Positions 3,552 to 17,174 of a stretch of DNA of 64,000 bases are shown here, one piece after another. Position 1 is the stretch's first letter; each line of letters starts with the position of its first letter. The notes beneath the pieces are model-generated. The model did no database searches and was not told the DNA's origin. It saw only the letters and a list, made by a program, of their open reading frames with translations. Made by a program: the position numbers and the translations under genes. Source of the stretch: Dictyostelium discoideum (lineage: Eukaryota). The stretch covers positions 2,368,001 through 2,432,000 of the forward strand of contig CM000150.2 of NCBI GenBank assembly GCA_000004695.1, given 5' to 3'.

Positions 3552-6500
3552 TTAATTAAAAAAACCATTAAAAGATAAAGAAGTATTTTTATTGAAAAAA
3601 TCATGAATATCTCTTTCTTCAGTTATATTTTTAAGTTGATGTTCCATAAGAGCAAATTCGACTAAAGCAGAAGAGAAAGACTCTGGAGTTAGAGAGGCAG
3701 CGATATTCTTTCCTTCAATGAATGGATCAGCGACATATAATACACCTTTACAATAATCATCTCTTGGATAGATACCACGAGAGATACTAATAACATCTTC
3801 ATTATAATTAAAGGTACAATAATATTGGAAGAATTTAAAAAGTAATTGACCAATGTTTAAACGATTATCAGCGGAAGTAAAATCTAAACTTGTCCAATCA
3901 TAATATTTTACAACATTATTTTCAACTCTACAATTTGCTTTTAATTTTATCTTTGTTTCATCGAAATGAAATGGTGAAGGTTCTTGAAGATTTGGTAGGA
4001 CTGGTGGTGACAACGATTGAAGGAAATGAATGATCAAATTGATTAAACAATAGGAACTAAATGATTCTTGAGAGGCATCATTTAAACATTTTGTTGAAGC
4101 CCACCATTTAATTAAAATGATGAGTGGTTTAACTCTAGAATCTACCATAGTGTAATCTTTGATTAACAAAGAATTATGTTGACCCATAAAACTATTGAAA
4201 CACATATCGAAACGAACGTTTACATCGGTATCAATGAATCTAATGATTGGTACACGAGCTTCTAAACGCGTTTCAATTAATTCATAATTTTTTTTATGTA
4301 AAAATGAAGAAACTTGTTTAATGGTACTAATATCCTCTTTTTGAGTGGTAGTAAAATTTACATCAATATCAGATTCACCCAATGATAAACCACTAAGGAA
4401 TGAACCAAAAATATTAAGTTTACCACTTGAAAAACCATCCAATAAATATTGAGTTAAACGTTTAAATGATTCTTCTTTAATTGTTTTTTTCTTACATTCT
4501 TTTGATTTTGCAATTGAGTAAAGTTTCTTTAAAGTGTTTGGAAGTGATAAACCAACTGAATAAGTTGGCTGTGATTGTTGTTGTTGTTGTTGTTGTTGTT
4601 GTTGTTGTTTTTGTTGTAAATATTTTTGATAAAGTGGGAATTTAATTAAATAATTATTAAAACAATCTCTTAATAATTTCTTATTTGCCAATACTGTTGA
4701 AGAAATAAAACTTTTATTAAATGATTGAAGTTCTTGAATAATTTCTAATAAAATCTTTGGATAATCTTGATTTGTTAAAATTTCTTGATTATTTAAAACT
4801 TTTTGAATATTTTCAGAAATTAGATTAATATCAATTATTGATGTATCTAAATTTATAATTGAAATTAATTCAGATGAATCTGTTGCTATTGCTGTTGTTG
4901 TAGTTGTTGCTGTTGTTGTTGATAATGTTGATGTTGTTGATGTTGTTGTTGTTGATGATGATAATGTTGATGTTGTTGTTGTTGTTGGTGGTGGTATTGT
5001 TGTTGATATTGATGATGATGATGTTGATGTTGATGTTGTTGTTGGTATTATTGATATTGTTGATGGAATTGGTGTAGTTGTTAAAGTTGTAAATAAATCG
5101 GTAGTTTCAACAATATTACCATTTATTAATAATAAATCTTCATCATCTTCTTTATTTAAAAATTTAATTTCATTTAATTCCTCACTACCATGTTCACTAT
5201 CAGAATCGTCATTTCCAAAATCAGTTATAAGACCTTGTGGATTAATTAAATCGAATTGAATTGTTTGTTCTCTTAAATTTTCAATATCATTTGAATTGAT
5301 TGAATAAACACGATCAATTGAAATTAAATGATCAATTAATTCACCCCAAGTTCTATCCAATTTCAATAGAGTAGCATTTCCAATGATGAATAAACCATAT
5401 TTAGCACGAGTGATACTAACATTGATACGTCTACGATCAGATAAGAAACCAATACTTTCATTTCTAACACAAGACATGATCATAATATCTTTTTCACTAC
5501 CTTGGAAAGAATCGATGGTTTTAATTTCAATATTCAATGAAAGATTCAATTGTTTATAGGCATCTTCAATCTCTTTTCTTTGTAATTTATAAGGAGTTAC
5601 AATACCAAATGAATATTGTTTAGTTTCTGGATGATCTTGAGTTAGCTTCTTTATTAAAGTGAATACCATTGTAATCTCTAATTGATTTTTAATTGAAGTT
5701 TTACCACGTTCCTCTCTTGAATCTGTAACATCAAAGAATCTAATGGCACCATAGTCTTGATTTTCATGGAAACGTAAACTATAGGCATCACTTGAAACAA
5801 CGTTATCACCATCCTTTAATATATCATGATAGAATTGTGATGATGGGAATTTTGAAATCAAAGGATGCATACGATATTGAACATTCAACATTGAAACTGG
5901 TAATACCTTGGAAAGACGTTCAAACAATGAAATACCTAAACCACAATGAATACTTTCCTTTGAGAAAATTGTTGGTGGTAATTGAACTGGATCACCAACC
6001 AATATTAACTTTTTCATTGATTTTGCACCCAACGACAATGGAATGATACAAGAGGTTTCACAGGATTGTGTTGCTTCATCCACTATTACCACATTTGGTT
6101 TGAATGAACTTTGTACTAAATTACTACCACTTGCTGATAATGTTGAGAAACAAATACTTGAGTGTTCTAAAATCATTTTCTTTTCATCCAATCTTCTATT
6201 GAAAACACAAATATCATGAACTATTGGATCTTGAATATTATCTTTCAAACCAATACGTACCATAGTTGGTATATACTTTTCACCACGATCATTTAATAAA
6301 CCTTTGATGATTACTCTTTTAGCAACTTCATCAACTGCTGCATGAGATGGACCACATACCAATATTTTGAAGTCTGGATTAATCGCTAAAATAATTGAAA
6401 TCAATGATGTGATAGTATGAGTTTTACCAGTGCCAGGTGGACCTTGAATTAAAGTTATAGATGAATGTACCAATGATTCATTGATTGCTGCCAATTGTGA

Positions 6501-17174: not shown

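Follow-up and report, generated by a model that had tools for sequence, protein, structure and literature searches.

Can a single gene of Dictyostelium discoideum encode both an RNA helicase and an enzyme that adds tails to RNA, and what would such a protein do? The question is posed by the minus strand of a 64,000-nucleotide stretch of D. discoideum DNA (hereafter the window), in which a prediction made from the letters alone placed a helicase and a nucleotidyltransferase (NTase) behind a repeat array in one polypeptide of 4540 residues.

An unbroken reading frame of 4540 codons

Positions 3552..17174 hold, on the minus strand, one unbroken open reading frame (ORF) of 4540 codons with an ATG start and a stop at 3552-3554. 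Only that stop occurs in the frame, against 261-895 in each of the remaining five, and at 26% GC the probability of 4540 codons free of stops is about 1e-177. A chance ORF is therefore rejected, and the intronless 4540-residue ORF of the original prediction is upheld. An internal stop, named there as evidence that would split the ORF into separate genes, is absent from the reading frame. A transposon-borne gene was considered and rejected as well, since Pfam finds no reverse transcriptase, endonuclease or integrase domain in the ORF. An exact-match look-up returned no entry for the protein, and a transposon ORF in the window was identical to D. discoideum AX4 entries; a literature search yielded nothing on this protein, nor on a helicase fused to a TENT. 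On balance, we slightly favor the view that the ORF, a real single-exon D. discoideum gene, encodes a giant enzyme of RNA processing whose helicase is tethered to its NTase and would work with it as proposed in the last section. Its features, from the amino to the carboxyl terminus, are as follows (basis in brackets; Dp, modules of D. purpureum).

3552..17174, minus strand: whole ORF, with array, low-complexity linkers, helicase and NTase (translation, stop counts)
16566..17174, minus strand: module 1, aa 1-203; best match Dp8 (HMM, orthology)
15882..16565, minus strand: Gln/Pro-rich low-complexity linker, aa 204-431; 130 Q, 49 P (composition)
15279..15881, minus strand: module 2, aa 432-632; orthologue Dp9 (HMM, orthology)
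14577..15173, minus strand: module 3, aa 668-866; orthology to Dp10 weak (HMM, orthology)
13764..14414, minus strand: module 4, aa 921-1137; orthologue Dp11 (HMM, orthology)
12384..13013, minus strand: module 5, aa 1388-1597; orthologue Dp12 (orthology)
11562..12173, minus strand: module 6, aa 1668-1871; orthologue Dp13 (orthology, AlphaFold2 model)
10554..11189, minus strand: module 7, aa 1996-2207; no clear D. purpureum partner (orthology)
9741..10346, minus strand: module 8, aa 2277-2478; orthologue Dp14 (orthology)
8976..9575, minus strand: module 9, aa 2534-2733; orthologue Dp15 (orthology)
7308..8975, minus strand: Asn/Asp/Tyr/Gly-rich low-complexity region of 556 aa, aa 2734-3289 (composition)
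5268..7151, minus strand: SF1B helicase, aa ~3342-3969, two RecA domains preceded by a stalk helix and a 1B-type beta-barrel (Pfam, PDB, AF2)
4881..5204, minus strand: acidic, then Thr/Ser-rich flexible linker from helicase to NTase, aa 3991-4098 (composition)
4575..4880, minus strand: helical region ahead of the NTase, aa 4099-4200 (alignment)
3555..4574, minus strand: Pol-beta NTase of the Cid1/TUT/GLD2 type with putative PAP-associated region, aa 4201-4540 (Pfam, PDB)

The boundary with the upstream gene

The next gene upstream, of which the original prediction made no mention, is made of modules alone.

17175..17669, minus strand: AT-rich spacer from the neighbor's stop to the ATG of the big ORF (sequence inspection)
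17670..21186, minus strand: array-only gene with three modules, Ua, Ub and Uc (orthology, inferred splice)

This neighbor is orthologous to D. purpureum P0121, with Ua resembling Dp1, Ub resembling Dp2 and Uc belonging to the subtype of module 4. Its putative splicing joins exon 1 (21186-19064) to exon 2 (18951-17670) across an intron at 19063-18952 (GTAAGA...TTTTAG, phase 2). The two genes could in principle be parts of one larger gene. Such an error in the gene model belongs to a broader alternative that we hold to be improbable, in which the linkage has no mechanistic meaning and the domains act independently, or one of them is inactive, on a scaffold whose real job falls to the array. An in-frame splice is formally possible, with a donor at TATGT/GTGAGG where the upstream gene ends and an acceptor at ATGACAAG/C just inside the big ORF (product ..TTYV-QQHDIVKSIF..). 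However, the spacer of about 500 nt has an intergenic look, with AATAAA-like signals followed by long T-runs and A-runs, whereas the neighbor's intron spans only about 110 nt; the D. purpureum upstream gene has no GT donor in its last ~60 nt; and in both species the initiator Met of the downstream gene directly precedes a module (module 1 here). No AG acceptor lies within the 9 open codons preceding the ATG of the big ORF. Judged by its sequence, the spacer is most likely intergenic.

A nine-fold array of a candidate new domain

Residues 1-2733 comprise exactly nine modules of about 200 residues with 22-31% mutual identity. The original prediction, at least nine copies of a module of ~190 residues, was thus right about nine copies, while the count is exact and the unit slightly longer. 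An HMM built from D. purpureum modules alone recovers the same nine (E 1e-29 to 1e-49), with a best score of -43.6 bits in 50 shuffles. That the module is unrecognised also holds, as neither a Pfam model nor a PDB fold matches it: no Pfam family is common to any two of 24 modules (the nine here and 15 of D. purpureum), and a fold search of the module 6 model against the PDB gave no structural relative. That model, an AlphaFold2 prediction with 19 modules as input, is a helical bundle with a beta-hairpin and a C-terminal helix (pLDDT 89, pTM 0.87). When 1.84 billion proteins were searched with a profile of the module, two matches only came up, both dictyostelid proteins. We regard the module as a previously undescribed unit with a confidently predicted fold and as a candidate new protein domain family. 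It is not exclusive to the 4540-residue gene, as further modules occur in other genes and 15 are found at the D. purpureum locus.

For eight of the nine modules, D. purpureum has an orthologue that pairs one-to-one and in the same order (Dp8-Dp15, with module 3 weak). This shared order marks the array as old and its modules as individually conserved, and such conservation, copy by copy in two Dictyostelium species, points to a separate job for each. Module 4 is a distinct subtype (..SNF..KDYPKYSGSLLDIRE..), and its 3' part shares 75% DNA identity with the third module of the neighboring gene (13773-13856 vs 18117-18200), the one informative pair in a DNA-level repeat search dominated by trinucleotide low complexity. 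A 250-residue Asn/acidic linker precedes module 5. The array lies ahead of the helicase as originally placed, but not adjoining it, for the 556-residue low-complexity region lies between; a short motif, F[TI]YVP(G), occurs there five times (aa 2803, 3105, 3164, 3200 and 3249). In the pre-helicase, linker and low-complexity segments, Pfam hits at E<=1 were noise only. The pI values of the modules, 4.9-9.0, range from near-neutral to mildly basic, and their charge indicates no ligand; an RNA-binding role deduced from charge was considered and rejected, this range being uninformative.

A helicase of the UPF1 family resembling Sen1

The helicase has Walker A (GPPGTGKT, aa 3578-3585) and motif II (DEATQ, aa 3699-3703) in the translation, and motifs I, Ia and II-VI are intact, including GDPVQLPP, QYRMHP, DSFQGSEKD and RRINVSITRAK, at positions that are invariant in an alignment of 36 homologues. 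All the motifs quoted in the original prediction (QYRMHP, RRINVSITRAKYG, RFDMCF and KCLNDASQESFSSYCL) are found in the translation. With Pfam matches above the gathering thresholds (AAA_11 1.6e-45, AAA_12 4.1e-56), the claim of a complete SF1B/UPF1-type helicase is borne out. "UPF1-like" needs qualification: the domain is a UPF1-family SF1B helicase, but its predicted fold is closer to Sen1/SETX and it lies outside the UPF1 clade. Pfam detects no Upf1 CH domain (PF09416) in the 4540-residue protein.

The AF2 model of the helicase (pLDDT 82, pTM 0.84) places a helix (residues 53-78), strands (102-172) and further helices (175-230) before RecA1. In Foldseek it aligns with the Sen1 and SETX helicase domains over ~690-750 columns at TM 0.75-0.77 (Sen1 on Pol II, 8ram_O, E 4.5e-47, TM 0.76/0.77; SETX 0.75), compared with ~0.6 for Upf1; by this modeled structure it is nearer to Sen1/SETX than to Upf1. 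In the PDB sequence search Sen1 also came first (5mzn, 8.9e-64), Upf1 scored 2e-59 and ZNFX1 1.9e-24, and MOV10 was not among the 60 matches listed.

These best matches speak for a nuclear, Sen1-like role, in which the helicase would dislodge RNA polymerase or resolve R-loops at non-coding or aberrant transcripts and the NTase would polyadenylate the released RNA for the exosome, the yeast NNS-to-TRAMP hand-off within one chain. We think such a role unlikely. The difference in sequence score between Sen1 and Upf1 is small, the Sen1 N-terminal domain (PF12726) is absent from the protein according to Pfam, and dictyostelids retain a separate canonical Sen1 that carries this domain (P0004, P0125) on a different branch of the helicase tree. 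That tree (Kimura-distance neighbor joining, 100 resamplings), proposed in the original prediction as a check, places the helicase core in a clade of its own: the helicases of the fusion group stand apart from Upf1, Sen1 and MAGATAMA3, with bootstrap values of 78% when Acytostelium is included and 99% for the group-4 members, the deep branches reaching only 52-61%. Upf1, Sen1 and IGHMBP2 move 5'->3', and by family membership we assume the same polarity here.

A Cid1-type nucleotidyltransferase

The original prediction put the helicase "immediately upstream" of the NTase, which is loose, as ~250 residues intervene before the NTase catalytic core: the Thr/Ser-rich linker and a conserved helical region of ~100 residues, alignable in part in dictyostelid relatives and ending in a poly-Gln run. 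The NTase signature comprises G4257-S4258, the catalytic D4269 and D4271, and a third Asp, D4323, in RFDMCF; none of these residues (GS, DxD, third Asp) varies among the four dictyostelid fusions aligned. The GS-x9-DIDV spacing originally given was off by one, the spacer being 10 residues long (aa 4257-4272). Together with a Pfam match to MTPAP-like_central (1.3e-18) and PDB matches to TUT4 (3.7e-32), GLD2 (2.3e-28), TUT7, URT1, CutA and Cid1, the Asp triad confirms a Cid1-family NTase. PAP_assoc is not matched by the window protein at E<=0.01 but is matched by its relatives from Acytostelium (4.5e-12) and D. purpureum (3e-5), and phmmer alignments to GLD2, TUT4 and TUT7 span the putative PAP-associated region (query 75-367 of 391).

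In ADPFIEGKNIAA, Lys4489 aligns with the uracil-selecting His of TUT4 and TUT7, which we take to be the His of the EDPF..HNxG motif (Cid1 His336, TUT7 His1286). The Acytostelium fusion retains KHNPAG at this motif. With Lys4489 in place of the His, the sequence is silent on nucleotide preference. The lack of the His is compatible with the adenylation that a Sen1-like role would involve; however, the NTase is far nearer to the cytoplasmic-type TUT4/7, GLD2, URT1 and Cid1 (1e-32 to 1e-20) than to Trf4 (3nyb, 4e-11). Pfam finds neither a zinc knuckle nor an RRM in the 4540-residue protein. The NTase thus lacks an RNA-binding domain, and we infer that RNA binding is supplied by the helicase.

Spread of the fusion among dictyostelids

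At least three further dictyostelid genes, from two dictyostelid groups, encode a helicase-NTase fusion. D. purpureum has two paralogues, a continuous ORF (L001:233-2797, 51% identity) and DICPUDRAFT_150267 (P0123, 2271 aa), and Acytostelium has two in tandem, SAMD00019534_099440 (P0001, 1378 aa) and a second of 1251 aa lying 2 kb downstream. Being conserved in both genera, the fusion cannot be put down to an artefact at a single locus. P0001 (37% identity) and P0123 (36%) share the helicase-linker-NTase layout and the helicase clade of the window protein. Unlike it, the Acytostelium pair lacks the array, with none recognisable in P0001, and P0123 has only ~4-5 highly divergent modules (best domain E 4e-6). 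Both P0001 and P0123 are annotated merely as hypothetical proteins. The helicase of the D. purpureum orthologue is 55% identical over the 458 residues of available sequence; its gene model has 3376 residues, and the ~330 residues extending past the examined DNA fit the remainder of the helicase but not an NTase.

Other relatives carry part of the assembly: P0124 has modules and a helicase without the NTase, and array-only genes have modules without either enzyme. The parts can thus work apart, as would be expected if their linkage had no mechanistic meaning, and in P0123 the Walker motifs are degenerate (GLTGTGKT, DDATQ). Nevertheless, the fusion has been retained in four other genes of two dictyostelid groups, and the catalytic residues of both enzymes are all intact in the window protein. 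Both of its enzymatic domains are, to judge from their motifs, complete and apparently intact.

None of the other helicase matches listed (top 120 per search) and none of 24 NTase matches combined the two domains, and no lineage beyond dictyostelids showed the fusion. The protein search scored 8000 word-sharing candidates and returned no D. discoideum entry for the 4540-residue protein. A query with aa 3278-4540, including poly-Thr and poly-Gln, gave one fusion, and an alignment free of low complexity added P0123 and P0124. Because the NTase-only search missed P0001 and P0123, both rows of the query alignment, the finding that among the searched proteins the fusion appears in dictyostelids only is a weak negative.

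Relation to known systems

Helicases and tailing enzymes are known to cooperate as separate proteins. In TRAMP (Trf4/5-Air1/2-Mtr4), a non-canonical poly(A) polymerase is likewise paired with a helicase in one functional unit that marks RNAs for decay. However, Mtr4 is a 3'->5' SF2 Ski2-like helicase whereas the window helicase is SF1B, TRAMP consists of three polypeptides rather than one, Trf4 is a weaker match than the TUT, GLD2 and Cid1 enzymes, and the window ORF lacks an Air-type zinc-knuckle domain. Sen1/SETX, which acts with Nrd1-Nab3 and hands off to TRAMP, is the best match in sequence and fold, stalk and barrel included, but Sen1 has its N-terminal domain and no NTase, and belongs to another clade than the window helicase.

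The S. pombe RDRC (Rdp1-Hrr1-Cid12) also combines a Cid1-family NTase with an SF1 helicase of the UPF1 family in one complex, as separate subunits around an RdRP. A single-chain counterpart of this pairing, or of MOV10 with TUT4/7, might serve small-RNA or transposon silencing by tailing TRE and DIRS-1 RNAs, thereby blocking reverse transcription, triggering decay or feeding RrpA/B/C. We rate this as somewhat less probable than even the Sen1-like role. These genes form a lineage-specific family that evolves fast and has duplicated in tandem, a pattern common in genome-defence genes, and TRE elements abound in the genome; but the TRE copies in the window adjoin tRNA genes in a tRNA-rich neighborhood, as expected for TREs, and their proximity is uninformative on function. 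The originally suggested RNA-surveillance or small-RNA machine, with its possible bearing on retrotransposon control, finds no direct support here. Hrr1 is a member of the ZNFX1 branch, a far poorer match to the window helicase than Sen1 or Upf1 (1.9e-24 vs 1e-60), and a literature search found no paper tying such a protein to Dictyostelium RNAi.

A mechanistic precedent for silencing, and for cooperation between a helicase and a TUTase in general, comes from human cells, where a UPF1-family SF1 helicase and Cid1-family NTases restrict a non-LTR element: MOV10 aids the uridylation of LINE-1 mRNA by TUT4/7 through displacement of ORF1p, the helicase clearing protein for 3' tailing (PMC6191937). 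TUT4 and TUT7 are the best PDB matches of the window NTase. In contrast to the window protein, MOV10 and TUT4/TUT7 are separate proteins that associate non-covalently, and TUT4/7 have CCHC zinc knuckles and the U-selecting His, both lacking here. The window helicase is also nearer to Sen1/Upf1 than to MOV10.

A tethered helicase and tailing enzyme

From the covalent linkage alone we infer that the helicase and NTase activities are coupled. The helicase would load onto a target RNA and move 5'->3' on ATP, stripping proteins or structure; the freed 3' end would then be reached by the NTase, tethered through the flexible Thr/Ser linker of ~100 residues, and the untemplated tail that it adds would set the fate of the RNA, whether decay or further processing. 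The nine non-redundant modules, with their poly-Q/P, poly-N and Tyr/Asn/Asp-rich linkers, may serve, perhaps inside an RNP granule, as a multivalent scaffold to which distinct partners attach.

Dictyostelids have array-only, array-helicase and array-helicase-NTase proteins. Tentatively, we propose a Dictyostelia-specific RNA-fate machine in which a Sen1-like helicase scans 5'->3' and hands the 3' end to a tethered tailing enzyme, while modules of a new fold, perhaps within a condensate, recruit different partners or substrates; its relatives would make up a combinatorial toolkit, plausibly directed against selfish or aberrant RNAs.

The fusion gene opens no long-standing question. Cooperation between helicases and tailing enzymes recurs in RNA surveillance (TRAMP, RDRC, MOV10-TUT4/7 and Upf1-linked uridylation), and as the partners are separate proteins their coupling is hard to dissect. 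The array, nine copies of a module without sequence relatives in Pfam or structural relatives in the PDB, is a candidate for a new domain family. The fusion, natural and covalent, occurs in a genetically tractable model organism and would make it possible to test directly whether a helicase moving 5'->3' delivers a terminal transferase to RNA 3' ends.

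Results

The fusion gene runs from an ATG through 4540 codons to its sole stop (window 3552-17174, minus strand), whereas the other five frames across the same stretch hold 261-895 stops each, in agreement with the single uninterrupted ORF claimed earlier. At 26% GC, 4540 stop-free codons would arise by chance with a probability of ~1e-177. Every motif quoted in the original prediction is present in the translation, with the correction that the spacer from GS to DIDV has 10 residues and not 9. Neither exact look-up nor homology searches returned a D. discoideum database entry for the 4540-aa protein. 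Long 'ORFs' at 7748-8761 (minus strand, other frame), 7971-8960 (plus) and 15881-16504 (plus) overlap the big ORF, are situated in its AAT/CAA trinucleotide-repeat regions and are low-complexity artefacts, not genes.

The protein opens with nine modules of ~200 aa each, with a mutual identity of 22-31%.

Modules of the big ORF
Modules 1-3: aa 1-203, 432-632, 668-866
Modules 4-6: aa 921-1137, 1388-1597, 1668-1871
Modules 7-9: aa 1996-2207, 2277-2478, 2534-2733

To avoid circularity in counting them, an independent HMM was built from D. purpureum modules alone. It recovered these nine and no others (E from 1e-29 to 1e-49) where at least nine tandem copies had been predicted, and 50 shuffles of the array region reached a maximum of -43.6 bits. 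The module had been called unrecognised, which is upheld by Pfam: for 24 modules, no family matched more than one and all matches were below cut-off. A profile search with the module in 1.84 billion representative proteins found only two proteins, each belonging to a dictyostelid genome assembly. The AlphaFold2 model of module 6 (pLDDT 89, pTM 0.87) consists of a helical bundle, a beta-hairpin and, at the C-terminus, a helix. All 24 modules from both species share one Gln, located in the ..EFxxxYQRKxLKE.. helix, and this Gln persists when three divergent modules of P0123, the D. purpureum paralogue DICPUDRAFT_150267, are added; one Phe and one Glu are nearly invariant in the module alignment. 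These residues may mark a common functional site of the modules.

Linkers of poly-Q/P, poly-N, acidic and Ser/Thr runs lie between the modules. C-terminal to the array comes a 556-aa Asn/Asp/Tyr-rich stretch that contains five F[TI]YVP(G) motifs.

Motif of the disordered pre-helicase region
(S/P)xF[TI]YVP(G), five copies: aa 2803, 3105, 3164, 3200, 3249; DNA within 7308-8975, minus strand

At the equivalent place, the D. purpureum orthologue carries a Tyr-rich repeat of the GxYxE type and no F[TI]YVP(G) motif. F[TI]YVP(G) may act as a short linear motif for binding.

The proposed UPF1-like helicase is supported by Pfam (AAA_11 1.6e-45, AAA_12 4.1e-56). Among solved structures, its closest sequence matches are Sen1 (8.9e-64), SETX-like (1.9e-62) and Upf1 (2e-59), with far weaker matches to IGHMBP2, DNA2, ZNFX1 and Aquarius, and all helicase motifs fall in invariant columns of a 36-sequence alignment. 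The AlphaFold2 model of aa 3290-3990 (pLDDT 82, pTM 0.84) places a stalk helix and a beta-barrel ahead of two RecA domains; in Foldseek it is closest to Sen1 (8ram_O, E 4.5e-47, TM 0.76/0.77), with SETX at TM 0.75 and Upf1 lower, at about 0.6. Pfam found neither the Upf1 CH domain nor the Sen1 N-terminal domain in the protein. In a neighbour-joining tree, which does not settle the deeper branching, the dictyostelid helicases of this family form a clade of their own (support 78% with Acytostelium, 99% without), distinct from dictyostelid Sen1, Upf1 and plant MAGATAMA3.

The Cid1-family nucleotidyltransferase (NTase) that had been assigned is likewise found by Pfam (MTPAP-like_central, 1.3e-18), and its top solved relative is TUT4 (3.7e-32), followed by GLD2, TUT7, URT1, CutA and Cid1. 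The NTase preserves the catalytic residues G4257-S4258, D4269, D4271 and D4323, none of which varies among the four dictyostelid relatives compared. The claimed PAP-associated domain fares less evenly: Pfam PAP_assoc stays under threshold on this protein and exceeds it on the dictyostelid relatives. Uridine is selected in Cid1, TUT4 and TUT7 by a His, with which Lys4489 (ADPFIEGKNIAA) aligns here; therefore nucleotide preference cannot be assigned from sequence. The Acytostelium NTase retains KHNPAG at this position. In a rival reading, the protein would be a nuclear terminator of the Sen1 type with a TRAMP-like adenylase attached; the closeness of the helicase to Sen1 favours it, and the much weaker NTase match to Trf4 (4e-11) counts against it.

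At the orthologous D. purpureum locus (L001), 15 modules (Dp1-Dp15) are followed by a helicase continuing past the end of the sequence examined; Dp1-Dp7 belong to a gene of their own, P0121, which is array-only and lies directly upstream of the array-helicase gene. Pairwise scores give colinear one-to-one orthology with D. discoideum modules 1-9 (Dd1-Dd9): Dd1-Dp8, Dd2-Dp9, Dd3~Dp10, Dd4-Dp11, Dd5-Dp12, Dd6-Dp13, Dd8-Dp14 and Dd9-Dp15. The array is therefore older than the divergence of these species, and its modules have each been conserved separately instead of being homogenised. The orthologues share 55% identity across the stalk, barrel and first RecA domain. The D. purpureum gene model has 3376 aa, of which ~330 aa lie past the sequence examined, too few for an NTase. 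A continuous helicase-NTase ORF (51% identity) is present at L001:233-2797 (plus strand), upstream of the array genes by ~7 kb; this 855-codon open frame is represented by an automatic gene call of a 90-aa product only. P0123 combines divergent modules (best module HMM domain E 4e-6), helicase and NTase, and its degenerate helicase motifs (Walker A GLTGTGKT, motif II DDATQ) suggest that this helicase may be catalytically impaired.

Elsewhere, array-only genes occur in another Dictyostelium assembly, and Acytostelium has two tandem helicase-NTase fusions 2 kb apart (L004:8001-18480) with no recognisable array. In the most parsimonious order of events, helicase and NTase fused first and the Dictyostelium lineage later gained the array. 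Among the matches listed, homology searches showed no helicase-NTase combination outside Dictyostelia, a weak negative given their candidate filter, and as far as seen the fusion appears confined to Dictyostelia. A rival explanation, that the linkage is without mechanistic meaning or the gene model wrong, is favoured by a D. cf. discoideum locus with modules and helicase but without the NTase, and disfavoured by the fusions kept in D. purpureum and Acytostelium.

Upstream of the big ORF lies a gene absent from the original prediction.

Neighbour gene
17670-21186, minus strand: array-only, two exons, three modules, predicted canonical intron GTAAGA...TTTTAG at 19063-18952

The intron joins ORFs 19063-21186 and 17673-18951, and the modules are Ua (~Dp1), Ub (~Dp2) and Uc, of the module-4 subtype. 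The gene is orthologous to P0121, which has seven modules, and the pairing of an array-only gene with an array-helicase gene is conserved in both species. An 84-nt stretch at the 3' end of module 4 (13773-13856) is 75% identical in DNA to one at the 3' end of the neighbour's third module (18117-18200). In addition, the peptide NQNEIIVNP[V/I]QSNR..EPKI is near-identical in the neighbour and in the linker preceding module 7, a hint that the two genes have exchanged sequence.

A spacer of 495 bp, containing AATAAA-like signals as well as extended runs of T and of A, separates the neighbour's stop (17670) from the big-ORF ATG (17174), and the nine open codons 5' of this ATG contain no AG acceptor. 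An in-frame splice uniting both into one larger gene is formally possible (donor TATGT/GTGAGG, acceptor ATGACAAG/C). However, the joining intron would span ~500 nt, against 112 nt in the neighbour's own intron, no GT donor occurs near the 3' end of the upstream gene in D. purpureum, and in both species the downstream gene opens with Met directly ahead of a module. We consider it highly probable that these are two genes.

Other features of the window
tRNA genes, nine in 64 kb (Glu, Gln x2, Asn, Lys, Thr, Leu, Ser x2): 297-369, 2125-2197, 3018-3090, 22364-22438, 30343-30417, 36737-36808, 43874-43960, 46215-46297, 56792-56874
Non-LTR retrotransposon copies or fragments (endonuclease and reverse transcriptase ORFs): 30639-34942 (plus), 37228-39381 (plus), 52227-56404 (minus), 57787-59457 (plus), 22879-24213 (plus)
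285-aa ORF, HPP family transmembrane domain (PF04982, 8.9e-52), unrelated to the fusion gene: 25899-26756, minus strand

One tRNA-Gln lies ~460 bp beyond the big-ORF stop codon. A 444-aa transposon ORF (22879-24210) is identical to multi-copy D. discoideum AX4 entries. The TRE-type retrotransposons adjoin tRNA genes, the usual siting for TRE elements. Their proximity is no evidence for a role of the big ORF in retrotransposon control; an RDRC-like or transposon-silencing factor is a rival reading of the protein.

Discussion

The predicted architecture is correct and the finding real, with intact catalytic sites and conservation among relatives. The protein is a member of the UPF1-like helicase and Cid1-type NTase families; it is not Upf1, Sen1, TRAMP or RDRC. 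As for its function, we infer that the helicase would supply substrate binding, because the NTase is without an RNA-binding domain of its own. Upf1/Sen1-family SF1B enzymes have 5'-to-3' polarity, and the helicase would travel toward the RNA 3' end, removing structure or protein en route, with the flexibly tethered NTase tailing the 3' end once freed. The module array and its prion-like linkers would form a multivalent scaffold. The closest functional precedent for helicase-assisted tailing is MOV10, which aids TUT4/7 uridylation of LINE-1 mRNA via displacement of ORF1p (PMC6191937).

We found no paper addressing the big-ORF protein. The pairing of a helicase with a tailing enzyme is a known theme; what is new here is a variant of that theme, together with a new repeat module.
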